64,000 bases of DNA. Origin: a virus (lineage: Duplodnaviria > Caudoviricetes). Location of the stretch: the IMG/VR virus record IMGVR_UViG_3300031555_010877, positions 1 through 64,000 of that record. One strand, given 5' to 3'. This document shows positions 43,947 to 64,000 of the stretch, piece by piece. The notes under the pieces are model-generated. The model was not told the origin of the DNA, did no database searches, and saw nothing but the letters and a program-made list of their open reading frames with translations. The first letter of the stretch is position 1, and each line of letters starts with the position of its first letter. Both the position numbers and the translations under genes were made by a program.

Positions 43947-46900
43947 CTCCTTCCTCTAACATTTGGTGCCCTAAACAATAAGGTATTAAAATCAAAATTA
44001 TCCGTTTCATCTTCTTCGTTAAGCTGCAATTCAAGCTGGGTAATAAGCCAGTAATTGTACGCCAGACTAGAATATCTGTCTTTACGGAATCCTGCTTTTT
44101 CATAAACTCTTATCATATTGCTCTTAGGCTCATATTTTAGGTTGATAAGCTCATTTATCAACAAAGTTGTATTCATATATGGCATCTTCAACATAAGCTG
44201 TGATGACATATCTAAGTTTTTATAACCCTTAATATCTTCTAAAATGTTTTCCTCCGCATCATCATCATTGATTAAAAGACGAATTTTACCTTGTTTAAAA
44301 CTTTCACGGAGTAACAATGCACACTCGGAGTTAAACTTATCAGTTGCTTTCACACTATAAATAACCTTTGGCGCATTTTTCACTTTGCAACGCGCAGCCA
44401 TTTCATCATTATTTATACAGGAAATAGCAGGGTAGAGAATACTCATTTCAGGGTCATAGATATCACGAATTAACTGGTCATAAACACCAAGACCATTCAA
44501 TTTTGTTATCCTGTAAGTTTTTTATCTTACAGTTCTGATGATTGTTCTTCTCATCAGTTCAGCATATTTTTTTATCTATATAAGATAGGGCGGCCTCGTG
44601 GAAATATTATTTCAATTTCTATGCGTTGCCCCTGACTACGTAGTAGCCTTCGGTTCAGGTTAGCATTTCAGCCTTCCTGCTTAATTCCGCCCAGTTCACC
44701 CAAATGTCACCATCTGGGGCGGCAATTTAATTTACCGGCTGTGTCTTGAATCAACCAGTCACAGTCAAATTCGTGAAAATATCGACGTGCAACCAACGCC
44801 AATTCATCCGTTGTAACATCTTCAACGTTTTCTGTATAAATTACATTTGTAATGTAACGTTTTGATGTATTTGGAATCAGTTGTGTTATAAAAATCGAAG
44901 ATGCGTCATTGTCACGCTTTTTTGAACTCATCAAAGCAACGTCAAGACTTAAAATACGTACCTCTCCAGGTTGCTTAGGAGGTATCTTCAATTTCTTATC
45001 TGAAAGTAAATTGGCAATTTTAGAGGGATAATAGGCCCTTTCCAATTTACGTAATTTAGAAATATTATTATATTCAAACAAAGCACCATCAGCGGAACCT
45101 TGCCATAAACATTCCATTTCCATAGAATGCGTCAGTTCATTAAAGTCACTTTCAGACATTTCATCCGCTAACTGGTCAGCGTCTAACAATCCAGACATAA
45201 TAGAAAGTTGATATGGCAATCCACAAAGAAAATATCTTTTTGTTGTGTCCAAAAAGTTGTTAGCATAGGATAGCATTTTTGCATATGACCAATGTGCAAC
45301 AAACCAAGCAGAACTAAGATAAAATTCTTTGTTACGCTCAATATATTTCTTTTTGTTTTCTTTATATTTTGGTTTATCCATAAATTTTGGCTGTCTTGGT
45401 GTTGACAGGAATTTTTTCAAAACCATATTGATAATACTGAGGTCGAGCATACGAAATTCATCATATCGTGTGTTATCCTGTAGGTTTTTTATCCTACAGT
45501 TCTTATGGTTTCCCATAAGTCCAGCATATATTTTCACCCTCGTTTAACGTTAGGTTTGCAAGATACTACTTCTTGCTCATACTGTCCTATAGACAATAGT
45601 GCCGAACACTCGTGGTGGAATTATTCTTTCGTCATCCACTATGCGTTACAATGACAATGCCTCATTACTTGCATTGTTTATCTCGGTATCAGCATATAAT
45701 TCTTTATCTAATATTTTTTCAAAATTTTGTGCCTCAAAATAAGGCAAACGAATTAATTTAATATTATGTTCTTGACAATACCTAGTCTTAATATCATCGC
45801 GGCGTGTAATACTTTCAAGACTAGAATGTGGATTAGCATGTTCAAATTTATTGGCCATATAATGAAATTGGCCGTCAACTTCAATGCAGATGTTTTTATC
45901 CTCAATATAATAATCAAACGGTAATACTCTAATATGCATACAATCATCAAAACGTTTTTCTTTAACATATTTGATGTTATTTTTTGCAAAATATGTTTCA
46001 ACAATATTCATATAACTTGATTGTCGAAGACTACATCTGGGACATCCTTTGCCTCTTAATAAATTATCAGGAGAAATATCATATACATGTCCACAAGCAA
46101 GACGTCTTACAGTCAAAGGCTGTCTTGCCTTAACATATTCGCCCAAGATTTCATATGTATTGGGATATTTTATGTCTACTTCATGTTGTAATGTTTGTTT
46201 TGTTTTGAAGTGATTTTTCCCAGAACAAATATAACATCCTTCTTTAGTTTTTCCTGTCATTTTTGCAGGACTTTTAAAAATTATATGACCACAATGCTTA
46301 CATAACAATTTAACTTTTGTCTCGTTATTAACATATTCAGACAATACATCAAATTGATTATTAAATAATTCATTCAACAAATTTTGAAAGTCGGAGGTAG
46401 TACGTTTTTTACTCATAAAATACCTCCGATATTAAATTTTTTCTATTACTTAGCTTTCACCGATTTTGCTCGGTTTCAACTGTATATTTCTATACAGCCA
46501 GACAATTTTATTTATCAGTATGTTAGCTCTCATAAATCGAGAGTTATCGTTTGCTGTCGCAACTTTCATAATTGAACCGTTGCGAAACTCAATATAAGCG
46601 TCGGATTGATTAACGACAACTGTTTTAATTTCATTTCTTAAATTTGCCGATTTCGGCATCAAAAGTTCAGTTACCTTTTCAAGAACACCTATGGCCTGTT
46701 TTCGTGTTTTGGAGGTAACAACAATAATAGTACCCGGATATAAAATACACCGTATAACACAGAATACTGCAATCAAAAAAGACTTGCCAAGGCCGCGAGC
46801 AGCAATGAACATGAAGTTTGTACTTATATTCATCATCACAATAAGTATTTTTTGAAACAGATGTAAATTTATATCCAGATACTCTTTTGCACAGCGATGA

Positions 46901-47001
46901 GGATTTGCACGATAATATGCTGTCATTCGCGCAACAGCATTCATTATCTTTGCTGATTTCTCTTGAGCAACTTCAATATCTGTTTTCACATTATCAGACA
47001 T
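43943..47001 (-). CDS. terL: Terminase large subunit, spliced from three exons (47001-46514, 45466-44734, 44497-43943; ~591 aa)
   Basis: Walker A ARGLGKS. Splicing restores Walker B RANILI|YDEFR and the nuclease motif QDTAG|NGLG. LDVA and KDRYSS nuclease motifs are present. Exon lengths sum in frame. Confidence 0.9.
44498..44733 (-). mobile_element. ORF-less group I intron (236 nt), terL intron 2
   Basis: P1 CGGT/GCCG with U.G; P7 GCAACGCATAG / ATATGCTG; terminal G before AAT GGT. Confidence 0.85.
45467..46513 (-). mobile_element. Group I intron (1,047 nt), terL intron 1
   Basis: 5' site after U (CTGAT|A); P7 GTAACGCATAG / ATATGCTG; ends ...ATAACACACG. Restores I-Y-D-E. Confidence 0.85.
45646..46416 (-). 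CDS. Intron-encoded endonuclease: zinc-ribbon repeats + Vsr/EDxHD-like PD-(D/E)xK domain
   Basis: CKHCGH/CYIC/CGH/CPRC repeats; PFDYY...IEVDGQFHY...D.IK..YC..HNIKLIRLPY. Confidence 0.8.
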   Translation of the reverse strand: MSKKRTTSDFQNLLNELFNNQFDVLSEYVNNETKVKLLCKHCGHIIFKSPAKMTGKTKEGCYICSGKNHFKTKQTLQHEVDIKYPNTYEILGEYVKARQPLTVRRLACGHVYDISPDNLLRGKGCPRCSLRQSSYMNIVETYFAKNNIKYVKEKRFDDCMHIRVLPFDYYIEDKNICIEVDGQFHYMANKFEHANPHSSLESITRRDDIKTRYCQEHNIKLIRLPYFEAQNFEKILDKELYADTEINNASNEALSL

Positions 47002-48025
47002 TGGAATCACCATCCTCGTCAGACATAGCAGCTTTTAATATATTAGCAATTTCAGCGTTTTCCTCGTCTTCACCATCTGCAAAAGTATTACGACGCTCAA
47101 CAGAATACTTAGCCTTTTCACGTTCATATTCTTCAGCAGCATCATTTTTAATACCAAGCATTTTACATAAATGGCCTTGGAACCATACTGTGATAAAGCG
47201 TTTAATTCCGTCTACATCTTCAAAATCTGGGTCGGGCTCTGGTATTGGGTCTTCATTTTCCCATTTTTCAATGAGAGTGCCCAAGGTATTGGCTTCAACC
47301 ATAGCATTATTACGTGCCTGTTTAGGCTGTAAGTTTGCAGTACCCAAAGTATCCTGAAAACTTTTTGTTGCACTATCCAAACCTTTCTGGTCATTGGCTG
47401 CGGCTGCTTTACGTATTCTTAATTTTAAAATACTCAATATCTGGAACAGTTCTTCCTGTGCCTTTGTAGAACACTCATAACGGGTAACCCAATCCTTATA
47501 TTCCTTTTGTAAAAACTGATATTCAGACTGAGTATAACCAGGCCCAAACACATCTACCGTTTTTTCAGCTAATACTTTTTTATCTTCATTTACTTTATCA
47601 AGGTCAGCCTTGGTATGTATAAGTAAATCTTCAGCCCTCAAACTGTCATCGAATGTTTTGCCTTTATTCTGTACACGATTAACAGCTGTCATATAACTGC
47701 TAAACAATGAACCCGTCGCTACACTTGTTTTATTGGCAGAGTCAATCAATGTGTCGTCATAATACAGGTCAAGCCTCATGCACATTCTGCGCATTGCTTT
47801 TAACTCATTGCCATATTCCAAATAATAGTCTTTAAACATTTCCTTGCAACAAGTTTTGCACAGTGTCATATAATGGTCATTACCGTCATATGTGCGACTG
47901 TTAGAGAAATAAAAATATTTCTGAGGGTCACCTGATGTCTCCAATCCACAACGACTACATTTATAGTTTTTTGGAACTGGAGCAGGAGGGAGAACAGGTT
48001 TTGTAATTTTCTTTTTTGTAGCCAT
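46994..48025 (-). CDS. Zinc-finger protein upstream of terL (possible small terminase)
   Basis: CSRC...CKTC; overlaps the terL start. Confidence 0.55.
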   Translation of the reverse strand: MATKKKITKPVLPPAPVPKNYKCSRCGLETSGDPQKYFYFSNSRTYDGNDHYMTLCKTCCKEMFKDYYLEYGNELKAMRRMCMRLDLYYDDTLIDSANKTSVATGSLFSSYMTAVNRVQNKGKTFDDSLRAEDLLIHTKADLDKVNEDKKVLAEKTVDVFGPGYTQSEYQFLQKEYKDWVTRYECSTKAQEELFQILSILKLRIRKAAAANDQKGLDSATKSFQDTLGTANLQPKQARNNAMVEANTLGTLIEKWENEDPIPEPDPDFEDVDGIKRFITVWFQGHLCKMLGIKNDAAEEYEREKAKYSVERRNTFADGEDEENAEIANILKAAMSDEDGDSNV

Positions 48026-49219: not shown

Positions 49220-50320
49220 TTATTTACTCCATTTAATATCAAAAAAATCTTTTGCAATCTGTGGATATTTGCATTCAAAATCAGTCATATATCTCATTTG
49301 ACTTTTTCGCCCTAAACTTCCACAATATAAACAATATTCGCGAAAAGACATTTTTTTAAAAAAGCTTGGCTGATTACACCAAGCGGCAATTGTGTCATAC
49401 AGCCCTCTGTATGGAGATTGCTTATAATCTGCATATCTCATAACATATGGCAATGAATGATATGTCATTAAAAGCCGAATACGCTTAAAAAGGTCTATAA
49501 TATCTTGGCACCAAAATAATTCATCATAATTTCCTGGACAAGAATGGTTATATCCACAAAAACAATAAAATTTTGGAACTTTATCTGTATAATTACGTAA
49601 TAAGCGTAATTTAGATTCTATAATTGAGGCGTCTGCTAAATTATCAAATGCAAATATATAATCACCTATCCAATTTGAACTAAATAAGACTTTGCACTTT
49701 TCTTCATTCAACAAACGTTCATCAAGTCCTTGCTTAAATTGAAATTTTTTACCTGTCATATTCAATTCATCAAAAATATCTGACCATTTTTTGCATGCCA
49801 AAACATTATCATCTAATAAACAAATATAGGGACGGTAAATATCTAAAAATTCTTTTACATGACTATGTATAAGACATTCTTTATAATTTTGATTGACACA
49901 AAAAGAACATTGTCGAATACACCCGCGGCTCATAAATCCAATTGAATATTTTGTATAATATTGAAACTCTTTAGCTGGTATTCCTAATTGTATTTTCTGA
50001 TTTACCCATTCATCATAAAGATGATAATCTGGGAAAGCATGCTCAATCTCAAAAGCAAGAGGAGGGGCTTTATCATAAAAAAATCCGGTTCCTCCATATA
50101 TCACTTTTGTATTATTTACAATAACATCAGGTACATCCGTATCGGTAAATACTTTCGATAAAAATATTAGTTCAAATCCGTCGATACTTTTCTCATCTAA
50201 AATGAGCTGAACTTCATGGCCATAATGTTTATAATATGAAGAAATTTTCATACATGCCAAATTAGGAAAACGATGTTTTTTGCGCCATAATAAATCAGCA
50301 TCAATAATACCTATCTTCAT
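49220..50320 (-). CDS. Radical SAM protein
   Basis: SRGCIRQCSFC (CxxxCxxC) and an N-terminal FPNLACMKIS motif. Start is ATG 50320. Confidence 0.85.
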   Translation of the reverse strand: MKIGIIDADLLWRKKHRFPNLACMKISSYYKHYGHEVQLILDEKSIDGFELIFLSKVFTDTDVPDVIVNNTKVIYGGTGFFYDKAPPLAFEIEHAFPDYHLYDEWVNQKIQLGIPAKEFQYYTKYSIGFMSRGCIRQCSFCVNQNYKECLIHSHVKEFLDIYRPYICLLDDNVLACKKWSDIFDELNMTGKKFQFKQGLDERLLNEEKCKVLFSSNWIGDYIFAFDNLADASIIESKLRLLRNYTDKVPKFYCFCGYNHSCPGNYDELFWCQDIIDLFKRIRLLMTYHSLPYVMRYADYKQSPYRGLYDTIAAWCNQPSFFKKMSFREYCLYCGSLGRKSQMRYMTDFECKYPQIAKDFFDIKWSK

Positions 50321-50353
50321 TTTCTTCCTTTTATCTAACAAAAATAGCAGAGG

Positions 50354-51491
50354 TTATTCCTCTGCAAACATATACTTCATTAAATGCATAATTACAGGTA
50401 CACACCAGCCGTTGCCAATTTGCTGATATGCTCTGGTATCACTGACTGGGAATTCATACCAGTCGGGAATGCCTTGTAGTTTTTTGCATTCATTGACTGT
50501 TAATTTTCTTATAATATAAAAACCGTCAGATAACTTAATGTCATACTGACGGCCTTTAATATCTATCTTATTATTTTTTACTTCATATACTGGGTATTCT
50601 TTACCATCTGCTGCACTTATTGCAGTTATCGGAATATCACCATCAAACTGGACAGGAATTGCATATAAGCCAGTCTTGCCACCAGCTCCACCAGCGTTAC
50701 CTTTTAATGTAACTGATTTTCCGTTGATGTCATAAATGCGAAGTCCCTGGCTTGTTGATAATTCACCATTGGGGCGCGGTAATGCTCCAACTTGGCGGCA
50801 TCCCACATATTCAGCAACACCGCTTGCGCCATAAGAACTATTCCAGCCACCAAGCATATTAGATGGTGAAGTCTTAGAATATTGAGCTTTTATAGTTAAG
50901 CTTTTCCCATCAGGACGAGCGTTGATTGGCTCACAACAAATATCAAGAATATCTTTAAGTAAAATGCCCATATTTTCAGGCTGTGGTATTACGATTTTCT
51001 TATAAGTACCATCCGCCTGTCTTATGCCACACCAGTATACGCGTTTGCGTGATTGAGCTGTCAATAAAGCAGCATCTACCATGACAGGCTCAAAACCAAA
51101 TTCATCTGAGATAGCTTTTTTAATAGTAGGGGACATACTATCATTGTTTTCATATAAAAAGTATTTTGGTTTGGCTTCTTTCAGACCCCTTGCATACTGC
51201 GAAAACAAATCCCATCCCATTCCATTTGCTTCGGTTTCGCGACCTTTTGTTTTGGCGGACGACCAAAATACACACGGCGAACCACCAGCAAGCAAATCAA
51301 TTCCTTCATACGCTGTAAAATCAGCAGTAAAAACATCGCCACAGTGCTCTATCATAGGAATGTTATGTGTGGAGGATTGTATAGCATACTTATCAATCTC
51401 ATACGCTACATAACGGTCTACTGTTTGCCCCCCCCTCCGTGAGGGCAATATAGGCACAACCCATACCGTCAAACAAACTTAAAACGTTCAA
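50354..51491 (-). pseudogene. C5 DNA cytosine methyltransferase, out of frame at a G8 tract (candidate phase-OFF state)
   Basis: Motif I (TTG-start LNVLSLFDGMG) is in a different frame from GGSPC, YENN, QSRKR and QIGNGW. Removing one G gives a 378-aa ORF. Confidence 0.85.
51428..51435 (-). repeat. G8 homopolymer in the methyltransferase 5' region
   Basis: C8 on the plus strand, exactly at the frame break. Confidence 0.95.
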
Positions 51492-51497
51492 ATCCTT

Positions 51498-52572
<1,075 letters not shown>

Positions 52573-52573
<1 letters not shown>

Positions 52574-52734
52574 TATTTACCTCGTCTGATTTCCATCAAT
52601 TTCTGTACAAAATGTCTTTCTTCTGGGAGGTAATATGTTTTTGCTCGTGCTTTTCTTTTGTTTGTTGTAGTAATTCTCAAAGAAGGAAATGCTTCTCTAA
52701 GTTTCATAGCTTCTTCACGGTTAATTTCAATCAT
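52573..52734 (-). CDS. Small basic hypothetical protein (53 aa), first gene of the late operon
   Basis: MIEINREEAMKLREAFPSL...IRRGK with AAAAGGAG RBS and TAATG coupling to the next gene; not in the ORF track. Confidence 0.65.
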
Positions 52735-52771
52735 TATAATTTCTCCTTTTATTTCCTTTTATTTCACGAAA

Positions 52772-52854
52772 AATGGTATAAAAGTTTGGTATACAATAAT
52801 GGCATAACAAACTGGCTTACATTTATTCGTATTCATATATACCAATAATTTTTT
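52772..52854 (-). promoter_or_regulatory. Conserved ~80-bp element, copy 1 (candidate late promoter)
   Basis: Three TGG(T/C)ATA boxes at 13-bp period plus ...CATATATACCAATAATTTT; aligns with copies 2 and 3. Confidence 0.65.
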
Positions 52855-52859
52855 GGCAA

Positions 52860-52886
52860 TAAAAAAGACCGCCCAAATGGCGGTCT
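52860..52886 (-). terminator. Terminator of the tRNA-cluster transcript
   Basis: AGACCGCC-atttg-GGCGGTCT followed by a U tract. Confidence 0.8.
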
Positions 52887-52892
52887 GATTTT

Positions 52893-53057
52893 CTAAAATT
52901 TAATCTTTTGTACAAAGCCACATTTTTTACAGCGGTAAACCATTAATTCTGCATATGGCATATTATCACGGGCGTTATTGTACAGACCAACTTCTCGGAT
53001 AAGCTCCCAGTCGTGTCTGCAAAACAAACTACGGATATACAAAAATATTGTTCTCAT
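52893..53057 (-). CDS. Small zinc-ribbon protein (54 aa)
   Basis: LFCRHDW...YRCKKCG; not in the ORF track. Confidence 0.65.
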   Translation of the reverse strand: MRTIFLYIRSLFCRHDWELIREVGLYNNARDNMPYAELMVYRCKKCGFVQKIKF

Positions 53058-53229
53058 TTATCCTACTTTTACTGTTACCAATTCCATACCATCAAATGTC
53101 ATAACAGTATCTCCTTTCATTCATTGAGTTTTTCTTGCATAATTGCACTAGCTGTAGACAGGAAAACTCTAACCTTGATAGAATTCTATCTGCAACACTC
53201 AACAGCAAAGCATTACAGGTCATTGAATT

Positions 53230-53319
53230 TGGTACCACTGGCGGGACTTGAACCCGCAAGAATATCTCAATTCTGCAGAATTTTAAGTTCTGTGTGTAAG
53301 CCAATTCCACCACAGTGGC
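53230..53319 (-). tRNA. tRNA-Leu(UAA)
   Basis: Cloverleaf with CAGAA-CTTAAAA-TTCTG anticodon arm, long variable arm, GGTTCAAGT and CCA. Confidence 0.9.
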
Positions 53320-53519
53320 ATATATCGTTTCACCGAAGCTCTCTGCTGCCAGTTGCAGCCGACAGCAGGCTTCTTGGGAGAACCATCATAAAAATAGGAG
53401 ACCAATATCTGCAAATATCTATCTCTTGAAAACGCAGGTTCAAAAAGTTTTTGTTCCAAATCCCTCACTGGGACACATTCAGAGGCGTGCTGAGATTTTA
53501 ACCTCAGCGGGTTGCGCAT

Positions 53520-54095
53520 AAATAGGTGCGGAGGGTCTTATCTTGCTTTAATGCCTTATAGGCTTTGTTGTAAAACTGTTATTTCTTCGCACTCCTATTA
53601 TTGAGTTGCCTACTTTAACAGTTTGATTTAAAAGCGAAGGCTTGGTACGGATGGCAGCAAGTAGCCAGAGCCGTGCCTCCGTCTGTTTTTGAGGAGAACT
53701 TCCCCTCGACTCGGTTGACCAGGGACTTTCGACCAGCCCAATTCTGTTTCGTCTACTAACGCAAGACTTCTCGTTCACCGCAAGATGAATATATCATCCA
53801 TATAAGCGTAATACAGTAACTTCACCACATTATTGTATGCATCCAAACCTGTAGAAAACTCAAAGCTGCTAAGATTTACAATGGTCGCCACCATTAACTA
53901 TTACAGCTCCTATAAACCTCTATAGTTACCCGACGTTTTGCTTTATAAACACTTGATTCTTTTTAAAGTTGCCAAGCTACAACTTAATCGTGGATTGGAA
54001 TTTCTTTACTGTGCTATCCTCGCACTGTCAACGCTGTCAACACAAAGGTTTCGAATCCTTTTGATAAGTAGGGGACAAATGTTGACAACGTCCAC
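53520..54095 (-). ncRNA. Large structured ncRNA candidate (~570 nt; ROOL/GOLLD-like context)
   Basis: No credible ORF, many hairpins, and located between tRNAs. Confidence 0.45.
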
Positions 54096-54171
54096 TGGAG
54101 CTGATAACAGAATTTGAATCTGCGACCTGCTGATTACGAATCAGCTGCTCTACCGGCTGAGCTATATCAGC
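54096..54171 (-). tRNA. tRNA-Thr(CGU)
   Basis: GCTGA-TTCGTAA-TCAGC anticodon arm; CCA encoded. Confidence 0.9.
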
Positions 54172-54537
54172 ATATATATAGGGTTTCTCAGACTGCCACG
54201 CATTTCCATCTCTTGTTATTAACCTCGGCCTTCCTATTTAAGGAAACTATCTGGCCTTTTGGACCCCAAACACTTGCGTTCTTTGCCGATTTCTGTTAAA
54301 TATCGGGAACATCGTAGTGGTAATTTATATTCTGCGGTTGCCACTATCTCCGCAGGTACATAATCGATAGCGAATTTTATATAAACATCACTTGTGCCTC
54401 GAAGAGGGCTGCGAAGAATCAAGCTTCGATATTTTGACAGTGGTGATGTTATAACCATAATGCCCTTTTTGTGCGGAAGGGATAACCGCCAAAATAAGAA
54501 AGGAGCCAAACATATGAATTATGTTACAGACGCACCT

Positions 54538-54611
54538 TGGAGCAGCAGATGGGAATTGAACCCACGATATCTGCTTGGAAGGCAGAGGTGTTACCTCTAC
54601 ACTACTGCTGC
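54538..54611 (-). tRNA. tRNA-Gly(UCC)
   Basis: TCTGC-CTTCCAA-GCAGA anticodon arm; CCA encoded. Confidence 0.92.
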
Positions 54612-54647
54612 ATAGGGAGGAGAGACGCGCTATCTCTCCAAATTTAA

Positions 54648-54723
54648 CGACGACAGTTGGACTTGAACCAACGACTATTGAGGTTATGCTGCCTCACGTT
54701 CTGCCTACCTGAACTATGCCGTC
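54648..54723 (-). tRNA. Atypical tRNA-like RNA with an 8-nt anticodon loop (CAGCAUAA) and no encoded CCA
   Basis: Acceptor GACGGCA/TGTCGTC, D stem GTTC/GAAC, anticodon stem TGAGG/CCTCA, T arm GTTGG-TTCAAGT-CCAAC. Confidence 0.7.
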
Positions 54724-54724
54724 A

Positions 54725-54799
54725 TGGTGACCCCTGGGAGAATCGAACTCCCGATGCCAGCGTGAAAAGCTGGAGTCTTTACCTCTTGACCAAGGGGCC
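54725..54799 (-). tRNA. tRNA-Glu(UUC)
   Basis: CCAGC-TTTTCAC-GCTGG anticodon arm; CCA encoded. Confidence 0.92.
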
Positions 54800-54987
54800 A
54801 TATGCAGACAGGCGAAATCAATATGATTTTCTTTAAAGTAAAATAAGAAGCATAACTTATACACAAAATGTGCTACCTATCAGAAACTTTTTTTATTGGT
54901 GACTCGGCACGGGTTATAAGGCACCGCCATCCTGTTGACTATACTGTTTTGCCTCGCTTACCAAGCATTTACGTCACCTATCCAAAC

Positions 54988-55063
54988 TGGCGGAAGCAGA
55001 AGGGCTCGAACCTTCGACCGTCGGATTAACAGTCCGATGCTCTGCCGACTGAGCTATGCTTCC
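54988..55063 (-). tRNA. tRNA-Asn(GUU)
   Basis: TCGGA-CTGTTAA-TCCGA anticodon arm; CCA encoded. Confidence 0.92.
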
Positions 55064-55155
55064 ATGCTCTCAAGCATTGCAGCTTGAGACCTAAAATTGA
55101 GGCATTACTTTTTCTGTTTCTCAATTTCTAACCACTCTTAAGTTGTGGCGCACTT

Positions 55156-55230
55156 TGGTTCTGGAGCCACGATTTGAACGTGGAACTTTAGGCTTATGAG
55201 ACCTAATTGCTACCATTGCATCACTCCAGT
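55156..55230 (-). tRNA. tRNA(CAU), Met/fMet-like
   Basis: TAGGT-CTCATAA-GCCTA anticodon arm; 1:72 A/A mismatch; CCA encoded. Confidence 0.85.
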
Positions 55231-55362
55231 ATATATGACCAGCTACCTCGCAAAACTGGCCGGGCTTAGGCTTCTCACCCGTAGGCTTCTCTCTTGCCTT
55301 ATCGGTTCACATACACCTAATATTACCACTCTTATTTATGAGAGAATCATAGCGAGGTTTGA

Positions 55363-55439
55363 TGGTTGCTGAGGTGCGGTTCGAACACACAAACTTCTGG
55401 GTCAAAACCAGATGACTCTACCAGTTCGTCTACTCAGCA
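55363..55439 (-). tRNA. tRNA-Gln(UUG)
   Basis: TCTGG-TTTTGAC-CCAGA anticodon arm; CCA encoded. Confidence 0.88.
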
Positions 55440-55444
55440 ATACA

Positions 55445-55936
55445 TTAAGCAGATTCTTTATAACAATACCCTTTGCAAACATTAATAATTGTAGTTTTTG
55501 ACACATTAAATTTTTTACTTAATTCACTACGTGAATATATATGTTGATTTTCTTTTATGTATTTAATATCTTCTGCAGAGAGTTTTCTTTTATTAAAATA
55601 AACATTATTATTGCGAATCTCATATTGAATGTGATATTGTACGTTTTTGGCTGGAGTTGTCCATTCAAGATTTTCTAAAGAATAATTAAGCTTGTTTTCA
55701 TCTTTATGATGAACAATAGGATAATTATTCGGATTATCAATAAACGTTTCAGCCAACGCTTTATGAAGTCTAATATTCTTAACTTTATGATTATAATTTA
55801 AATTCACATGATAATACCCTGTTTTACCAATATAAGCTGTCATCAAATTTCCAGTTTTTAAATTTTTTATATTACCATTTTCATCAATAATAAAATTTGG
55901 ATATTCAACATTATTATAAATTAATGTTTTAAACAC
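55445..55936 (-). CDS. Free-standing HNH homing endonuclease with a C-terminal HTH
   Basis: HKALAETFIDNPNNYPIVHHKDENKLN....NLEW. Start reassigned to GTG after AAAGGAGG. Confidence 0.85.
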   Translation of the reverse strand: MFKTLIYNNVEYPNFIIDENGNIKNLKTGNLMTAYIGKTGYYHVNLNYNHKVKNIRLHKALAETFIDNPNNYPIVHHKDENKLNYSLENLEWTTPAKNVQYHIQYEIRNNNVYFNKRKLSAEDIKYIKENQHIYSRSELSKKFNVSKTTIINVCKGYCYKESA

Positions 55937-56009
55937 CAAATACCTCCTTTGGTATATTTTTTGATGGCACGTATTAGGGAACGTGCCCAAACCCTTAACT
56001 TTTAGCCGA

Positions 56010-56091
56010 AATGGTATACAAAAATGGTATATTTTGTTGGTATAACAAAACCGCTTACATATCTTGTATCCATAAATACCAACAATTTTTT
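56010..56091 (-). promoter_or_regulatory. Conserved ~80-bp element, copy 2
   Basis: TGGTATA x3 at 13-bp period plus GTATCCATAAATACCAACAATTTTT. Confidence 0.65.
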
Positions 56092-56128
56092 GTAACTTAT
56101 TAATTAAATTACCTAAGTTGCATTTTTA

Positions 56129-56209
56129 AATGGTATAAAACAATGGTATAGACCAATGGGATAACAAAACAGCATACATTAAAAGTATCCATATATACCA
56201 ACAATTTTT
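56129..56209 (-). promoter_or_regulatory. Conserved ~80-bp element, copy 3
   Basis: TGGTATA, TGGTATA, TGGGATA at 13-bp period plus GTATCCATATATACCAACAATTTTT. Confidence 0.65.
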
Positions 56210-56825
56210 AAAACACTTCCTGTGCCAAAGCCATAATGTCATTCTCTGACAATACATAAGTGCCTTCATTAATAAGTGGTACTTTAATTTTATAACGGCG
56301 ATTTTTAGATAATGGACGTTTTCTGTCCCACATAAAATAACTTTCTTCATCACCGCACTTTTCCATAAAATCAAAGTCAATCAATTCCGGAATATATCGA
56401 CCACTAATATGTGACTGCTGAAGACCTATCCAATTGGAAAATGCAACTGTTGAAATATTAACTTCGCCATCACTGTTGGCATTTATCTTTGCATAACATA
56501 AGATTGCCAAAGCTAAAAGCTTGCAATTCTTACTATCAAAACGACTGATAATATTATAAATATCTGTATCACTTACAAACACATCTGTCTTTCCACGCAA
56601 TTTATGCTTGTCCTCAAGTGCCTGATATATTACTGAGTTAACACTGAAAGGGAAGTACACGCGGTGTTTTTCGCCCCAGTTGAAAATCTCATTACGAATT
56701 TCTAAATTATTCAAGCCCTGCTCTTTATACCACATGGCCAGCAGGAAACATATTCTATGTAAACATTTCTTATTTATATTTTTACCTGCGAGGTATTCCT
56801 GTACCTCTTTGATTTCATCAATCAA
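56208..56825 (-). CDS. Hypothetical protein coupled to the RNA polymerase gene (possible accessory/DNA-binding factor)
   Basis: TTG start after AAGGAG, overlapping the polymerase stop; possible winged-helix C-terminal half. Confidence 0.55.
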   Translation of the reverse strand: MIDEIKEVQEYLAGKNINKKCLHRICFLLAMWYKEQGLNNLEIRNEIFNWGEKHRVYFPFSVNSVIYQALEDKHKLRGKTDVFVSDTDIYNIISRFDSKNCKLLALAILCYAKINANSDGEVNISTVAFSNWIGLQQSHISGRYIPELIDFDFMEKCGDEESYFMWDRKRPLSKNRRYKIKVPLINEGTYVLSENDIMALAQEVF

Positions 56826-59800
56826 TAGTTTGGACTCCTTCTTCTCCAAGGTTACAACGAACCATTGTGTATTTCTTGCCCAAATATTCTTCGGTGCCGT
56901 TATCGTCACGCTGCGGTAACATAATATCTACCGGTTTAATGTTCTGTACAATACCGTCACCAGCAATCTGCCACAAGAATTTCTTATTGCGGGCGGGGTA
57001 CCTCTCGTAGCACAATACCGTCGCAATATTCGCCAGCTCCTGTATATTTGGGCATACCTGCAGGCAGCGGCTTTTATACTGGTCATAATAATACCCCCAG
57101 TTGAACATAAAATTCTGAGCAGTTTTTTTATCAATCCAATCTTTAAGTTCATCTTTGTAATCATCATATCGTTTAAACATTGCTGCTTCTTTACCTAACT
57201 CTGCCATTTCTTTATTAAACTCTAAATATATATTTTCTATCGCTTTAAAATGTTCTTCGGTATATCCAATTTCTTCATCAATCATAATATGGTAATCAAA
57301 ATCTTTAAATGTGCGTTTGTATCTGATTGTCTTTTCCCATTTTTCAATCTCTCTGCATAAACGGTTCATATTGCTGTTTGTCATTGCAAATTTGTGAAGC
57401 TTTCCATAATACTCACCAGCGTACTTCATAAAATAGGGAAGTGGCTTCGCATATTTTGCAATATGTTTCGGAATATTGAAAAGCACACCGGTCTTAGCGA
57501 AATCTCTTTGGACTATATCATCACCTCGCAGGGGAGCGAGGGGTTGGCGCTTCCAAATGCGGAATTGCACCGCAAATGTACAGATTTCATAACCTTAGCA
57601 AATGCCGTAGGTTGTATATCTTAGTCTCTTGACCTTACAATAAATTTCTTCATTGTCTTGGCACAGGATTGTTTATAGTATATAAATATTAGTCTTTGTG
57701 ATATTTTCCAGCTTTAATATTATTTATTGTACTACTATAACATTTAAGCTGACGGGCAATTTCACTGCAACTAACTCCTTCTGCTATCATTTGTTTTGCC
57801 CTGTTTATTTCCTCTTGGGTAAGGAAATGTTTTGGTTTCTTCTTATTCATGTATTCTTCCCAGCCATCAATTTTAATATGTGTCCAACTTCGATTATTGG
57901 CAATTGAACTGATAGCTCCAAAAGATACATTATATTTTTCACTCAATACTTTTTTAGATGTACCATTTAATAATTCTTTTTTTATATTTAAAACTTGTTC
58001 CTCATTTAATTTTGCAAATTTACTTTTGCTACCCAAATTCTGTTCACGAATTTTCTGTCTTGTTATATCACTAACTACTCTGTTGCTCATATATATACTT
58101 AAGGCTTGTTTGTTTTCTTCTGTGGGACTAAGGTGTTTACTTGATGCTCGCATTTTTTGCTTTGTCTCTTCAGACAACTTACTACCCAACATACGTTGTC
58201 TGTTTTTCTCTCCAAGCTGCTTATAAAATTCTTTATCACGTACACAACCTAAAGTTCCATCTCCACCTGTTGTTAAATTAAATCCATTATTGTATGTATC
58301 ATATTGTTTAATATATTCTTGTTCAAGCTGACTTAAATCATCATTATCCTTTTTTAAATATAAGATACCAAATATTAAACTATCTGCACCATATTTGTTG
58401 AATGAAGCTTGGAGATAAGCATTATCATGCTCATTGTGTTCCAATTTCCATTGATGATGCCAGAACCGTCGTTTAAAAGACTGGTCTGTTTTGCCGATAT
58501 ATAATTTATCATTACCTTTACAATAAATAGAATATATACCAGCCTCGTTTTTGTATTTATTATAATCTTTAAATTCCAAATATTTATTTCTATCTATATA
58601 CTATAAACTTCCCCTGTTAGCACATTACCAAATTGCCATTTCCTGCAATTCCACAATGTGTAATGCACACCCCGTATTTACGGGTTCACCAACTTTTGCA
58701 CTGTATGTCACCATACAGGAGCACAGATTTCTATGCTTTTACCTGTCACAACGGACAGAATATCTATATAACTATCATATTTTTTCTTTTGTTCTTGTGT
58801 TTTAGGAACTTTTGCATGGAAGCACGACGCCGCATTTGATGCTTCGCCAACAAGACTTACCATGCCACGTAAAATTGCAGCAAGTTTGCTTTGGTCATTA
58901 TAAGGTTCTTCAATGGATGTGATTTTATCTTCTATATCAATCATAATAGGAATGTCTCTTACGACACCTTCCATCATCAAAGGATTATCAATCACACAAA
59001 GCAAGTCTCCGTCAAAATCACAACCCGATAGACGTTGTGGTGTTAAGCTCTTGCCATTAATAATAATTGTATTGACCAAATGACTGCAATATTTATCTAA
59101 AAGTTCATTTGTTATACCTTTTAAGATAACATGTTCAGATTTACAAATATGAGGATTACGCTCAATCAATTTCTCTCCAAGTAAAACTCCATCTTTATTA
59201 AAACTGTAGAATTCATCAGCTTCGAGGCAACCATTGACTTCAAGCCCACCAATATGTTCCATCATCATAATTACATCAGGCACAGCAAATTTAAAACATG
59301 CTTTAAGCCACAATTTCCCGCATTTCATATCATCTTTATATTTCTCAATCAAAGATATAAGATATGTACGCACTCCATGTTCCTTCATCATCATCGGATT
59401 GCGAAGAATTGCCTTGGCATAATTATTAAGAGGCTTATGACTATCAGCCATCATACCTAAAAAACAATATGTATATAATGGGTCACCATTGATTATTTTT
59501 TCAATCCAACGAATACTATCTGTTGCGAGCAGTGCAAATTTCTCATATGGTAATTCCAGGTCTTGCAGAATCTGATAATTTCCTCTGGTATAAACTGGTT
59601 CTTCATCAAGAGAAAAGTTCCATTTTGCAACACCAAAGCAATGTTTATATTTTCGGAATTTATCCCAATATCGTTCCCAGTCAGCATAGGTGCCAGTATC
59701 TTTGAAGTATTTTTTACCTTTATACATACTTTCAAACCAGATACATAATGGCTCACTGCCAGGAGCAACAGAATGCTTCATACCCCAAATATCAGTAATT

Positions 59801-60579
59801 TCTGTGATGCCGTGTTCAGCAAAAAAAGTTTCATAATCAACTTCTATAGACAATCCTTTTATATAAGGACAGCGAGCAATAAAACTTGTCATTGGTGTAT
59901 TACTGCCAATCTTTTCTTCAAGAATACGGGATATGGCTGGATGATGAATCCCCGCACCATCAAACACATTAATTTCAATGTCTGTAGTTTTTTCTGCAAC
60001 ATCTTTTTGTGTCCAAGTTCTTTTTTCTCCAGTATCTTTATCAATAAATTCAGTTGTATTGTCATACAAATATTTAATGTGCTGATTTGGAATTACTCTA
60101 TAATAATCAGGAACAATCACAATTTTAGGAATCCAATCTTCAACACAGTGGCAGCTTGATAACATGAGTCCCCGGTAGGCTGTATATTTAGCAATTACAG
60201 TTTTATCAAAGTCAATATCCATAGTAATACGCTTGTCTAGTTCCTTGATAATTCGGCTGTCAACAAAACTCATAATTGCATTACGCTGCATTGAAGCACT
60301 TCGCTCTGAAATCTCAAATTTTTGCCCATTTACTTTAAACCCGTGCTGAACTATCTTTTTGAGTTCAGCTGTTTTATTTTTGGCACCTTTACAATCAACA
60401 AAAATTATGTATTTATTAAATTTTTCATCATCAAATGTAATCTTGCGTATCTGCCTCAACATAGGGGAGTCAGACTGTTTAATAAAATAACGTTCACAGT
60501 CACCCTGAATATGATAATCAGCATCTACAATTTCCTTAAAAGGAATTTTTCTTACTATATATAACGGTGGACTAAACAT
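56818..60579 (-). CDS. yonO: YonO-like single-subunit two-barrel RNA polymerase (RdRP-family), spliced (exons 60579-58733 and 57505-56818; ~844 aa)
   Basis: R.P..KG, RNPH and catalytic SGCDFDGD motifs. Splicing restores GKSI|DFAKTG. Confidence 0.85.
57506..58732 (-). mobile_element. Group I intron (1,227 nt) in the RNA polymerase gene
   Basis: P1 AGCAT/GTGCT with U.G; P10 AAATCT pairs with exon AGATTT; P7 GAGACTA / ATAGTC; terminal G. Confidence 0.9.
57689..58579 (-). CDS. Intron-encoded GIY-YIG homing endonuclease (NUMOD3 + HTH domains)
   Basis: GIYSI...YIGKT, H.N..LQ, GFNLT.GG and KLSEETKQKM motifs. Flanked by the inverted repeat GTTTATAGTATATA. Confidence 0.88.
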   Translation of the reverse strand: MEFKDYNKYKNEAGIYSIYCKGNDKLYIGKTDQSFKRRFWHHQWKLEHNEHDNAYLQASFNKYGADSLIFGILYLKKDNDDLSQLEQEYIKQYDTYNNGFNLTTGGDGTLGCVRDKEFYKQLGEKNRQRMLGSKLSEETKQKMRASSKHLSPTEENKQALSIYMSNRVVSDITRQKIREQNLGSKSKFAKLNEEQVLNIKKELLNGTSKKVLSEKYNVSFGAISSIANNRSWTHIKIDGWEEYMNKKKPKHFLTQEEINRAKQMIAEGVSCSEIARQLKCYSSTINNIKAGKYHKD

Positions 60580-60768
60580 TTACTCACCGTCCCTTAAACG
60601 CTGCTGCATTGTTTTTGGTGAGAATTTATGGTAACTCATTTCTGACCAATAATATTCGCTGGGCTCAAACAATTCACAGCCTTTTACATCAGTTGTATCT
60701 ACCCCGCCACAAAATTCATACAGGGCGCAATTTTCACAATTGCAATATTCATCGAACAATATAAGCAA
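60580..60768 (-). CDS. Small Cys-rich protein
   Basis: CNCENC...C.......C with AAAGGAGG RBS. Confidence 0.6.
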   Translation of the reverse strand: MLILFDEYCNCENCALYEFCGGVDTTDVKGCELFEPSEYYWSEMSYHKFSPKTMQQRLRDGE

Positions 60769-60801
60769 TTTCCTCCTTTGCTATATTTTTGTACTTTAAC
60801 T

Positions 60802-62133
60802 CTATATCTCATTTTCAATCTCCTCATCTTCATCGTTATATCGTATCGGACTACCTACGGGAAGCATCTCTAAAAATGCTGCTCCAGGCAACCAATATTT
60901 ACTTCCATCATTTGTTCTTTTTGCAACTGAAAAATGTATGTGTGCTATGCGTCCTAAATAATCATCTCTGTGTTCCCAAAATTCTTTGCGTTCTTCATCG
61001 CTATATCCAAGAGGCAGCACGACGTTGCTACCTTTATAATCAACTATAAAACTCTGCAGTATATCTTCATTTTCTTTTTTTGTGTAATCAACTATCATCA
61101 AATCTGCTTCATGCATTTGTCTTAGGTATAAGAAACTTTCACTGTTCTGTCGGTATTTATATAAGTCATAATCAAGATTAACTAAAATTCCTGCGTATCC
61201 TTTTTCTTTGGCTACTCTGAATGCTTTTAAAATATTTCCTCTGTAACGTCCATTAAATAAAATCGGGGCAAGTTGTATATGTTCGGTAGGTGTAAAATTC
61301 GTCTCTAAAAATGTTCGTCGGTCTTTATATATGTTTTTACATGTCTTACGGTTAAATTCTTTCAAAGATAATATGTCATAGATATAAAATATAATGTCAC
61401 TTTTATCGCGCTCTGGCAGTCGGACTATCCATCGCTCTTTCATTCGGCGGTCATAAGGGGAGAGGTCTTTTGCATCCTCACCTTTATAAACAAGTTCGCC
61501 ATCAAATACCACTTCATCAAACGGCAAGTCATTAAATTCCTGCAAGAGTTCATCGAAGCCCTCAAGGACAATGCCGAAGCGTGTATACATTCTTGCTTCG
61601 CCACATTCTTTGATAACAGCGCAGCGGGTGCCATTGTACCAACCGGAAACTGTGAACTGTCGCTGACGCACATAGTCTTCGTTACCATAGTACAGCCCCG
61701 GCATCATCAATGGGATTTCATAAACAGTTCCCGCGCCATATACTGTATTGACCTGTTTGGCTGAAACATTTATTTCAAGGTCTCTCAGCACCGCATCAAT
61801 CAAAAAGTCGTGGAGCTCAGCGGGGTAGAGGGTAAGAGAACCATGTATCTTTGCCACAGCTTTTTTATTACCCGCCCCCATATATGTCAGATATTCAAGC
61901 AGGTCATCACCTTCGCCTGTCACAAACGGCACAACGTCTTCGGCTGTAATTTCGGACGGCGCCCATTTATCAAAGATAAGGAAACGGCTTAACCCAAGAC
62001 GCGTTTTCCCAAACTGATACAATAAAAAGTCTGTCCACTTGGTATTTGTTGCATTACGGCGCAATATGCGTATTTTTTCATCATAAGATGTTGTGGCCGC
62101 CAACGCATCTGCAATTTGTTTAATTTCGTGTAT
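60802..62133 (-). CDS. ATP-dependent DNA ligase homolog with a degenerate active site
   Basis: DGEL, YIYDIL and OB-domain layout are present, but motif I reads WYNG rather than KxDG. Probable ATA start at 62133. Confidence 0.7.
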   Translation of the reverse strand: MHEIKQIADALAATTSYDEKIRILRRNATNTKWTDFLLYQFGKTRLGLSRFLIFDKWAPSEITAEDVVPFVTGEGDDLLEYLTYMGAGNKKAVAKIHGSLTLYPAELHDFLIDAVLRDLEINVSAKQVNTVYGAGTVYEIPLMMPGLYYGNEDYVRQRQFTVSGWYNGTRCAVIKECGEARMYTRFGIVLEGFDELLQEFNDLPFDEVVFDGELVYKGEDAKDLSPYDRRMKERWIVRLPERDKSDIIFYIYDILSLKEFNRKTCKNIYKDRRTFLETNFTPTEHIQLAPILFNGRYRGNILKAFRVAKEKGYAGILVNLDYDLYKYRQNSESFLYLRQMHEADLMIVDYTKKENEDILQSFIVDYKGSNVVLPLGYSDEERKEFWEHRDDYLGRIAHIHFSVAKRTNDGSKYWLPGAAFLEMLPVGSPIRYNDEDEEIENEI

Positions 62134-62147
62134 TTATATCGCCCCCT

Positions 62148-63074
62148 TTAAAATAATTCATCATCTGATATATCAGCGGAAATCTCTGCGACTGCTTTTT
62201 GCGCATCAAGATATTCCTTAATTTCTGGCGGTAACTGTGATGTTACATATGTACGTTCATCAACAGTCATATTTCCAAGCTGTTTTTTGAATTGATGATA
62301 GAATGCATTACAGTATTCCTGCTGCCAACAATAATTAGGCCGCAACAGATTGCTTGTATTGACAAAAATTGTCTTATGATTATGAAAAACACCTTGTACA
62401 ACAGCACTCATTGGTTTACCAAAGAATATCAATCCAAGCTCTTTTAACAATCCACATATTTCAGAAGTTGTTGATGAACTGTTATAACCTAGCCCATCCG
62501 CAATTTCACCTCGTGATATATACGCATAACGAGGTTGTTTTGACTGTGACTTGCGTTCATCTGCTACTTTGCCCTGATATATTAAAAATTTAATATAGAT
62601 ATAATGTAACAATAAAGCTCGAAAGCCATATTTTTTGCCGACACCTAAAGACGCCGTCATCAAAGTCATATATTCACCCTGGGTAATAACTCGAAAGAAC
62701 ACTTTTATATTCTTATCTGTTTGTCCATTAAAAAACACTGGATTAAGACGGACTATTATTGCGGAACGATTGTCCTGAAATTTTGCTGCATTTAGAATGA
62801 CATTGTTAGCATAGAAAAAATCAAGTACAGCATTTAAATTTTCAATATGAGCTTTGCGCACACTCTGAGCATGAATCCCGATATAATTGCATAATATTTC
62901 AGGATTCACAATACTGATATTGCCATGAGTTTTACAAAACTGTAATCCACAAAATACTGTCAAACTGTTTGGTATAGCTAATTCCGCATCAATCATCATT
63001 TGCGGAATAAATATTTTTAAATCTTTACAATCGTCTTGAATTGCCTCAGATAATATCTTTAATTCTTCTGTCAT
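62148..63074 (-). CDS. Hypothetical HTH-containing protein (possible replication initiator)
   Basis: AYISRGEIADGLG..S..T..EI...LKELGLI winged-helix pattern; iteron-like repeats lie upstream. Confidence 0.5.
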   Translation of the reverse strand: MTEELKILSEAIQDDCKDLKIFIPQMMIDAELAIPNSLTVFCGLQFCKTHGNISIVNPEILCNYIGIHAQSVRKAHIENLNAVLDFFYANNVILNAAKFQDNRSAIIVRLNPVFFNGQTDKNIKVFFRVITQGEYMTLMTASLGVGKKYGFRALLLHYIYIKFLIYQGKVADERKSQSKQPRYAYISRGEIADGLGYNSSSTTSEICGLLKELGLIFFGKPMSAVVQGVFHNHKTIFVNTSNLLRPNYCWQQEYCNAFYHQFKKQLGNMTVDERTYVTSQLPPEIKEYLDAQKAVAEISADISDDELF

Positions 63075-63133
63075 AAACCCTCCTTCATTTTTAGATGTCA
63101 AAAATCTGCGCCTGCGTCGAAGATATATATACC

Positions 63134-63181
63134 TATATAAAGAGATACGTATATAAAGAGAAACCTATATAAAGAGATACG
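63134..63181. repeat. Three tandem 16-bp direct repeats (TATATAAAGAGA(T/A)AC(G/C))
   Basis: Units at 63134, 63150 and 63166. Confidence 0.9.
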
Positions 63182-63312
63182 ATACTCATATTTTTTATAA
63201 ATAAAAAATATTCGTCCTGTGCCGTTGTGTTGTTGTTTGTTGCGTCGTGTTTTTTGCCGTTGTCACTGTGCCTTGTATGGTTACTGTGGGCTTTGTCTGT
63301 GTTCCTGTGTGC

Positions 63313-64000
63313 CTACCCATTTAATGCGCTGTCAATACTGTCCGCCATCGCATTAATTTCGCCCTGTGTTATTGTAAGGTATGTTTTTGTTACGCGCTGG
63401 TCACTGTGCTTGTACTTTGCCTGCAAGATGTCCATAACACTGTCGTTGTTCATTGTTTTGCGCGCTGTGTATCCGTATGTTTTGCGCAGTGTATGTGTTG
63501 CCACGTTCTGTGTGAGGCCCGCCGCCTTTGCACCTTTCTTTAAAATGTCCCACATTTGGTGCAGGCTCATTTGCCCGCCATTGTCACTTTTCTGGGACTT
63601 GATAAGGTAGTCGCTCATTGTATAGTTGCCGTTGAGATGTTCAATGTACATTTCAATGGCTTTTTTTGCGCCCGCTGTTATTTTGTTGCGATTGTACTTG
63701 CCGGTCTTTTGTTCGTACACATCATAGTAATCTTTTACTGTACCATCCTCATTGAGAACGTCACTGATGCGCGCTCTGAGCAGGTCACTGCCTCTGTCCC
63801 CAATGGTGCAGCCAAACACTACCATCATATAATTGCGGTACTTGTGTCGGCCCCCATGTTCAAGGAAGTAGTTTGCGAGACGCTGAAATTCGTCCGCGCT
63901 GTAAAGAGGCTCTGCACTCTGTGCCTTTTTCACGCCATTGCTTTTGTAAGGCGACGCTGTTCTTGGTGCACGCTGTTTTGGCGCTGGCTTTGCTGCGGCC
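63313..64000 (-). CDS. Tyrosine recombinase/integrase (5' end beyond the window)
   Basis: R (GDRGSD), K (EQKT), HTLRKT, H and Y catalytic residues. The frame is open to the window edge. Confidence 0.85.
   Translation of the reverse strand, partial: AAAKPAPKQRAPRTASPYKSNGVKKAQSAEPLYSADEFQRLANYFLEHGGRHKYRNYMMVVFGCTIGDRGSDLLRARISDVLNEDGTVKDYYDVYEQKTGKYNRNKITAGAKKAIEMYIEHLNGNYTMSDYLIKSQKSDNGGQMSLHQMWDILKKGAKAAGLTQNVATHTLRKTYGYTARKTMNNDSVMDILQAKYKHSDQRVTKTYLTITQGEINAMADSIDSALNG

Follow-up and report, generated by a model that had tools for sequence, protein, structure and literature searches.

Examination of the first 64 kilobases (kb) of a 124,692-base pair (bp) provirus record from a gut bacterium (IMGVR_UViG_3300031555_010877; Duplodnaviria, Caudoviricetes), hereafter the window, revealed three intergenic copies (A, B and C) of an element composed of a core of about 21 nucleotides (nt) and an array of heptamers repeated with a 13-nt phase. 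The phage encodes a YonO-type RNA polymerase; the elements lie downstream of its gene and are co-oriented with it, copy A stands at the head of the late operon, and the same position is held in relatives. By their position and by analogy with SPbeta, the elements most likely belong to the promoters of phage polymerases, which are a known kind of signal. More specifically, and with moderate confidence, we propose that they are late promoters of the phage's own polymerase, in which the core would be a signal common to the whole family and the array a lineage-specific module binding a protein at or just after initiation.

In the proposed mechanism, the core would be read by the two-barrel PF05183 polymerase as a signal for both recognition and melting, and transcription would start at or shortly after its 3' end. 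The heptamer array directly after the core would offer docking sites to a lineage-specific protein that is active during initiation or immediately afterwards. The leading candidate for this role would be a predicted winged-helix protein (56208-56825), here called the accessory protein, whose gene is translationally coupled to that of the polymerase. Copies C and B would drive an HNH endonuclease gene and a block of transfer RNA (tRNA) genes, while copy A would restart transcription past a terminator and serve more than 52 kb of late genes.

Structure of the three elements

The three stretches align with a mean column identity of 80% over 112 columns and share an element of about 85 nt. A repeat-family search recovered them as an 82-nt family (52771-52852, 56009-56090 and 56128-56209), and a profile built from the three copies and run with nhmmer against the whole 124,692-bp record gave exactly three matches (E 3.6e-21 to 2.4e-23), the next best having an E of 1.5. 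The three aligned copies of about 80 bp described in the original prediction, which was made from the letters of this DNA, are confirmed by all three approaches. The window contains 24 occurrences of the heptamer TGGTATA, shuffled versions 9.6 +/- 2.6, and none of 100 shuffles reaches 24. Heptamer pairs with a spacer of 5-7 nt number four, every one within the elements, and the reversed control gave none. The feature is real, conserved and non-random.

All three copies have the same orientation as the minus-strand genes downstream of them (Table 1). The original prediction had given the sequence correctly but on the strand as written; the genes are on the minus strand, and the element read along with them is the reverse complement. 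In gene orientation, each copy consists of an A-run, the core and then four 13-nt units. The core reads TATATG(G/A)ATAC and continues into an AT-rich 8-9-mer ending in ATG. From the core outward, the heptamers are a degenerate TA(A/T)GCNN, then TATNCCA, then TATACCA twice without mismatch. The phased TGGTATA units that had been predicted were found again, as four units at a 13-nt phase with a degenerate first one rather than as three, and the inverted (T/A)ATACCA box is present, not as a separate box but as the left part of a core that is shared across lineages. A lone extra TATACCA (gene strand) occurs at 55950-55956, 55 nt downstream of the last copy B heptamer and just before the start codon of the HNH gene.

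A consensus scan of positions 50000-64000 found no sigma-70-type pair of -35 and -10 hexamers (16-18 nt apart, with A2 and T6 in the -10) on the gene strand inside any copy, as had been claimed for a sigma-A pair from the first inspection. Promoter-like sites in the same region numbered 45, against 51.5 +/- 8.7 in shuffles, which represents no regional excess. A search of 52000-58800 with the covariance models of Rfam 15 gave no match at E <= 1 on 52770-52855 or 56007-56210.

Table 1. Coordinates of the elements and of associated features in the window.
Feature	Position	Strand	Remarks
Element copy A	52770..52855	-	nhmmer E 3.6e-21; head of late operon, directly after terminator 52866-52886, 35 nt before first late gene
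Copy A core	52820..52841	-	TATATATGAATAC and 9-nt AT-rich stretch with ATG end; indexed by hand
Copy A heptamer array	52774..52819	-	52813-52819 (degenerate), 52800-52806, 52787-52793, 52774-52780; 13-nt phase; lag-13 autocorrelation 0.51
Element copy B	56007..56092	-	nhmmer E 2.4e-23; precedes HNH gene and tRNA cluster
Copy B core	56058..56078	-	indexed by hand
Copy B heptamer array	56012..56057	-	56051-56057 (degenerate), 56038-56044, 56025-56031, 56012-56018; lag-13 autocorrelation 0.47
Element copy C	56127..56210	-	nhmmer E 4.4e-22; begins a few bases past accessory stop codon; 119 nt upstream of copy B
Copy C core	56177..56197	-	indexed by hand
Copy C heptamer array	56131..56176	-	56170-56176 (degenerate), 56157-56163, 56144-56150, 56131-56137; lag-13 autocorrelation 0.57
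Accessory protein, 205 amino acids (aa)	56208..56825	-	TTG start 9 nt after AAGGAG; overlaps polymerase stop codon region
YonO-type RNA polymerase, N-terminal part, 623 aa	58708..60579	-	PF05183 E 1.4e-11; phrog_8308 E 1.6e-57, profile positions 102-627 of 847
GIY-YIG homing endonuclease, open reading frame (ORF)	57689..58579	-	PF01541; phrog_314, phrog_7168; separates the polymerase parts
YonO-type RNA polymerase, C-terminal part, 250 aa	56818..57570	-	phrog_8308 profile positions 644-824
HNH endonuclease gene	55445..55990	-	between copy B and tRNAs
Cluster of 8 tRNA genes	53230..55439	-	ARAGORN; Rfam tRNA matches 44-73 bits; downstream of copies C and B
Intrinsic-terminator-like hairpin	52866-52886	T runs on both strands	8 pairs, 6 G-C; consensus scan; ends tRNA block just before copy A
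First late-operon gene, 53-aa protein	52573..52734	-	same position held in relatives

Conservation of the core and of the repeat phase

Related loci (designated by L numbers) were gathered with an alignment of the polymerase, single-protein queries having retrieved none, and comprised 80 loci from IMG/VR and 25 from Clostridia genomes and metagenome-assembled genomes (MAGs). The accessory alignment has no conserved stretch, so the Clostridia loci were also collected through the polymerase. An exact-pattern scan of IMG/VR with the three-heptamer pattern gave no match, and hence no near-identical element there. The three-copy profile of the whole element found nothing at E <= 1 in 82 related loci; the conserved parts are thus the core and the phase and not the full sequence of the element.

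In a first group of 14 related loci that were displayed, 13 have the core and phased repeats after the stop codon of the accessory gene. In a second group of 19 displayed loci they were likewise seen in 14, within about 60 nt of the accessory stop in 11 of them and at +286 to +832 in three; the cross-lineage consensus of core and array was read by eye from these displayed loci. The architecture was not seen in L195 or L190, nor in three loci whose accessory match is weak. Conservation of the core extends over lineages whose polymerases are only 50-65% identical. As an independent test, a core profile built from this phage and the IMG/VR loci was run on the 329,048 bp of the 25 Clostridia loci: the ten best matches (E <= 0.75) are all on the gene strand and lie -10 to +358 nt from the accessory stop.

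The number of units per array varies from 2 to more than 12, mostly of 13 nt, and the distance from the core to the first unit is fixed. The longest array seen, in a Christensenella MAG (L194:5889-6100), has at least 12 tandem 15-nt units after the core, in a stretch that ends in NN. Exact heptamer triples in the 82 related loci number 1, 1, 0, 3, 26, 25 and 8 at periods 9 to 15, as raw counts that were not dereplicated. Among lags 8-18, autocorrelation is highest at lag 13 in 12 of 16 elements (mean 0.45 at this lag, against 0.30 +/- 0.07 in shuffles) and, in the independent set, in six of the ten best core-profile matches; a sliding lag-13 scan at lax thresholds was too noisy to be informative.

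The heptamer itself is lineage-specific: TATACCA is found here and in L013, whose polymerase is 62% identical, and TTATCAC, AAAGGTA, ATTGTAA, TTGACAA, TGTCGAT or TTATCCA elsewhere. Assignment of the elements to late promoters of a YonO-like polymerase, as originally predicted, gains from their position, their orientation and their recurrence after the polymerase and accessory genes in relatives. The accompanying idea that the TGGTATA/TATACCA boxes are the conserved signal had to be abandoned: they form an array that is specific to the lineage, the 13-nt phase being kept elsewhere with different heptamers. The motif scan proposed at that time thus yielded three copies in the record and, in relatives, the core and the 13-nt phase. 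From these comparisons, the heptamers are most likely the lineage-specific half of a bipartite signal, and the core of about 21 nt appears a better candidate than the heptamers for the recognition site of the polymerase.

Multiple copies are also found in relatives, and their number goes with the structure of the operons. L013 has three copies, as does this phage, and in both a tRNA block lies between the polymerase operon and the late genes. Diplocloster agilis (L186:10237 and 10510) carries two full copies of core and array 273 nt apart past the accessory gene, like copies C and B, and two other whole records that were scanned have one copy each. In L069, a second copy lies on the opposite strand and faces the genes of that strand.

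A hairpin promoter of the N4 virion polymerase type was considered and rejected: folded as DNA, the three copies are unremarkable (z -0.8, -2.0 and -1.0) and have no fold in common. Two copies of L013 score z +0.4 to +0.5, and L075 alone has a strong inverted repeat (z -6.6). A metagenome scan with a core-plus-heptamer pattern gave 70 matches; no homologue of the accessory protein or of the polymerase lies within 2 kb of any of them, and they were judged to be chance occurrences.

The accessory protein

An accessory homologue lies 3' of the polymerase gene in 23 of the 80 IMG/VR loci and in 16 of the 25 Clostridia loci. Among 50,697 GenBank phage records searched with tblastn, it was found only in two Thomasclavelia phages, a polymerase homologue being present in 40 records. 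The protein has no sequence match in Pfam, PHROG or PDB (best E of 0.5 among PDB chains), and in the protein atlas it matches only viral clusters without a name.

A structure model of the accessory protein (predicted local distance difference test, pLDDT, 88.4) has a helical N-terminal domain and a C-terminal winged helix. The best structural matches are the DNA-binding domain of CAP, over residues 99-181 (Z 8.2, root-mean-square deviation 1.4 A, 65 residues aligned), and the winged helix of TFE-alpha (Z 7.6); further structural matches include ORC/Cdc6 winged helices, the N-domain of DnaD and a plasmid initiator (Z 6.5-7.0). The top rows of a Foldseek search are all ArsR-type winged helices, with weak scores (E >= 0.06), and weak HTH_36 matches were obtained for five of 12 family members. 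The protein is predicted to have a winged-helix fold (three-helix bundle and beta wing) and is a putative DNA binder, a fold match alone being no proof of binding.

The first ten residues of the predicted recognition helix are identical to those of this phage at one to six positions in relatives, and thus vary more than the rest of the protein, which is 31-55% identical. L013, the one displayed relative that shares TATACCA, has the closest helix start (6/10). L043 is equally related overall (55% vs 54%) and has a helix start of 3/10 and a different heptamer.

Comparison with known systems

A literature search that included the accessible portions of PMC8270828, 10.1101/2021.11.22.469490 and PMC2919709 found no paper defining a promoter of a YonO-type polymerase. 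The nearest published precedent is phage 0305phi8-36, which encodes a PF05183-type polymerase (orf99), and a motif of about 21 bp in its intergenic spaces was proposed, from sequence alone, as the promoter of that enzyme (PMC2147016). The resemblance to the present case, a phage-specific intergenic motif of about 21 nt accompanying a PF05183 polymerase, is one of description only (PMC2147016). Unlike the elements found here, that motif has 14 copies in positions that would suit middle genes, and neither a phased array nor a coupled accessory gene is described in the available sections of the paper (PMC2147016). The only studied case is YonO of SPbeta, which initiates a single long late operon from a point between yonO and yonK; the sequence of the promoter, P_YonO, and any need for an extra factor are stated there to be unknown (PMC5467207). 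As far as that account goes, the two phages share a PF05183/YonO-type polymerase and a start region that lies downstream of the polymerase gene and heads a long late operon (PMC5467207). They differ in the polymerase itself, the N-terminal part being 23% identical to SPbeta yonO, and in the gene that follows yonO, which is yonN (annotated as a DNA-binding protein); tblastn found no accessory homologue in SPbeta-type records. Inspection by eye of the SPbeta yonN-yonK gap, on a record on which the published start coordinate was not located, revealed no core or phased repeats.

Promoters of the T7 type are likewise phage-specific signals of about 20 nt, present in several co-oriented copies and drifting in specificity between lineages. 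To our knowledge, they lack both an array of repeats on their downstream side and a DNA-binding partner of their own, and the fold of their polymerase is unrelated to the YonO type. Winged-helix activators of the SARP/OmpR families bind direct repeats of heptamers with an 11-bp period, on one face of the helix, upstream of the -10 and in the service of the host polymerase. The present elements share with these sites the heptamers at a fixed phase beside a core, but their period is 13 nt and the array comes after the core. Finally, the ops site of RfaH and the lambda qut site of Q are short leader signals in the first tens of bases of very long operons, which are single sites and act on the host polymerase. 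A short signal at the head of a very long operon is found here too, with a terminator just downstream in some lineages.

Probable site of initiation and possible functions of the elements

The position of the start can be narrowed by what lies on either side of the element. Most lineages have the end of the accessory coding sequence immediately before the core, and the conserved signal outside coding sequence therefore starts with the core itself. On the other side, the last heptamer of copy b in L013 extends to 5094 and tRNA-Met starts 2 nt later, at 5096, and in L052 a ribosome-binding site lies within about 8 nt past the last unit; since the tRNA and the ribosome-binding site abut the array, the start is not expected well downstream of it. 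Taken with the fixed distance from core to units and the variable number of units, this spacing suggests that transcription starts at the core or soon past it, either ahead of the array or inside it.

Several points weigh against the proposed late promoters. The polymerase is linked to the elements by position and by analogy with SPbeta, whose enzyme is only 23% identical. Proteins arrayed immediately past a start site should impede a polymerase and not assist it. The match of the modelled accessory structure to winged helices is of middling strength (Z 8.2; best Foldseek E 0.06). In a partial-Mantel test over 17 lineages, similarity of the recognition helix did not follow similarity of the repeat unit after correction for overall relatedness (partial r 0.01, permutation p 0.48), although the test is crude, with fixed windows and with T-rich spacers that dominate the similarity. 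The link between accessory protein and heptamers therefore comes down to one anecdotal pair (L013 and L043), and the assignment of the array to the accessory protein is put forward as a hypothesis and not as a finding. Moreover, among accessory-bearing lineages, L075 and L185 have an inverted repeat after the core, L005 and L068 have no clear period, and L065 has the accessory gene with no core right after it. Additionally, similarly identical polymerases that have a different neighbour, of 271-283 aa, gave no core-profile match.

No homology between the accessory family and the 271-aa neighbour was detectable with hhalign (probability 0.05). In four lineages with this neighbour (L012:728-920, L031:798-975, L007:81-258 and L027:~1333), a core-like box precedes either three 14-nt repeats or an inverted repeat. 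These boxes lie about 9 kb upstream of the polymerase gene in a divergent intergenic region, and may represent a similar signal at the head of a different operon.

Among the alternatives, the core alone might be the promoter, the array acting after initiation in the transcribed leader, as RNA or as the non-template strand in the transcription bubble. There, a factor that the polymerase needs for the 50-kb late operon (one for processivity or antitermination, or else a regulator that binds RNA) could load repeatedly. An array at a fixed distance past the core with 2 to at least 12 units fits a leader better than a promoter of fixed geometry. With a tRNA 2 nt past the last unit of L013, transcription probably covers the units. 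In L043, L047 and copy c of L013, a hairpin with a T run stands between the array and the late genes, and the covariation test gave no support to double-stranded recognition by the winged helix. Such a role is nevertheless unlikely in our opinion: no candidate RNA-binding or antitermination protein was identified (no search was aimed at RfaH or Q), the single-strand folds are unremarkable and the elements have no Rfam match, and in this phage no hairpin follows the array, the terminator preceding copy A instead. We find it distinctly improbable that the host RNA polymerase uses the elements as late promoters, the winged-helix protein being an activator on the heptamers and the phage polymerase transcribing something else. 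Winged-helix activators on direct repeats are common, and in some lineages the AT-rich 8-mer resembles a -10 hexamer (CATAAT in L061, L055 and L013). Against this stand the lack of a -35/-10 pair on the gene strand inside the copies, the A at position 2 of the would-be -10, which is not conserved across lineages, and upstream TTG-like hexamers that lie 14-20 nt away (by eye). Furthermore, the heptamers are downstream of the -10-like stretch and not upstream, where activators bind, the upstream side being occupied in most lineages by the accessory coding end, and the element is found only beside the pair of polymerase and accessory genes.

Direct repeats and an AT-rich stretch beside a winged-helix gene are also the classical layout of an initiator and its iterons, and this layout is formally present here. 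The elements would then be sites for assembly of the winged-helix protein without a role in transcription, as a replication origin with an AT-rich unwinding region, or as a partition or packaging site, and the ORC/Cdc6, DnaD and plasmid initiator folds among the structural matches go in the same direction. This explanation seems very unlikely, as the copies are co-oriented with the genes that follow (3/3 here, 3/3 in L013, 2/2 in L186 and 2/2 in L069) and each stands at an operon head, past terminators or directly before a tRNA or ribosome-binding site. The sequence and spacing of the core are far better kept than those of usual unwinding elements, the 13-nt unit is below the usual length of an iteron, and the accessory gene is always coupled to the polymerase gene and never to replication genes. 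Finally, the copies could be inert duplicated DNA, spread without function along with insertions of homing endonucleases or of the tRNA block. Copies B and C do border a region that contains mobile endonuclease genes, and one variant lacks the HNH gene, but the architecture, the position and the 13-nt phase have been kept across many lineages while the heptamer sequence was replaced, and we find this explanation scarcely credible.

The late-promoter proposal can be extended to a bipartite signal for a polymerase that has no sigma factor, in which the core would be read by the enzyme, the array would load the winged-helix partner onto the polymerase that has just started, and the array would be re-coded in each lineage. 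This extended form is speculative, and we consider it improbable as a whole. The 13-nt phase is close to the size of a transcription bubble. If true, such a hand-over from initiation to elongation, which has not been described for any phage polymerase, would amount to a phage-specific licence for the 50-kb late operon.

No relatives of cellular RNA polymerases are known that are smaller than the YonO-type enzymes, and how these find promoters in the absence of factors of the sigma or TFB type is a question posed since 2017 (PMC5467207). The conserved core motif, the coupled gene for a winged-helix partner and the lineage-specific phased array supply testable material for this question. Core, accessory gene and array occur together in many Clostridia prophages, including those of cultured strains (Diplocloster, Anaerolentibacter, Thomasclavelia phages). 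If the proposed late promoters are real, the core motif would allow late operons to be annotated across a large group of gut phages, and could yield orthogonal polymerase-promoter pairs with a built-in lineage specificity.

Genomic setting of the elements

Long ORFs are almost wholly on the minus strand in about the first 64 kb of the record and on the plus strand in the remainder. The minus-strand order begins with an integrase fragment, an unknown gene, an ATP-dependent ligase and the split YonO-type RNA polymerase. The polymerase ORFs are followed by the 205-aa ORF, copy C, copy B, the HNH gene, eight tRNA genes, the terminator, copy A and the late genes, which include the 53-aa protein, PAPS-reductase-like ORFs, a C5 methylase, a radical-SAM protein, an exonuclease, the terminase and the portal. 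This is the context given in the original prediction, with one copy just after a terminator and before the late operon and two between the polymerase operon and the HNH/tRNA cluster, and the terminator at 52866-52886 is confirmed by the consensus scan.

Homologues of the polymerase number in the hundreds, at 55-85% identity, and some are split (about 620 aa) while others are unsplit (about 840 aa). The C-terminal polymerase part aligns with the C-terminal part of unsplit homologues, the closest being 96% identical. The polymerase genes of other relatives are interrupted at different places, and no group I intron model of Rfam matched within 52000-58800.

A search for sequencing runs containing the stretch gave no RNA run. 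Contigs from four DNA runs represent near-identical variants only, some of them with replacements in the tRNA block; the differences were only partly listed. A contig of run X14, from a near-identical phage, skips 55368-55966, and with it the HNH gene, and has 76 other letters instead. Judging from these variants, the endonuclease genes appear to be mobile between near-identical phages. Within the tRNA block, ARAGORN predicts at 54647-54724 (-) a tRNA whose anticodon has four bases (gcat) and to which no amino acid is assigned (Rfam tRNA score 44.1 bits); it could be a tRNA of the frameshift-suppressor type or a miscall. Between tRNA genes, at 53693-53740 (-), there is a sub-threshold match to the DUF3800-XI RNA over the full model (34.3 bits vs a gathering score of 37.8, E 6.9e-5).

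The 53-aa protein at the head of the late operon is 41% identical (E 2e-13) to that encoded by the ORF after element copy c in L013. At 51498-52573 (-), two overlapping ORFs (197 and 287 aa) match successive parts of the PAPS-reductase-like phrog_424, and the gene is apparently either frameshifted or broken. Farther downstream (44707-47013, -), the large terminase is apparently split around an HNH-type endonuclease ORF (45646-46416), with an ATPase part at 46450-47013 and a phrog_15503 part at 44707-45537.

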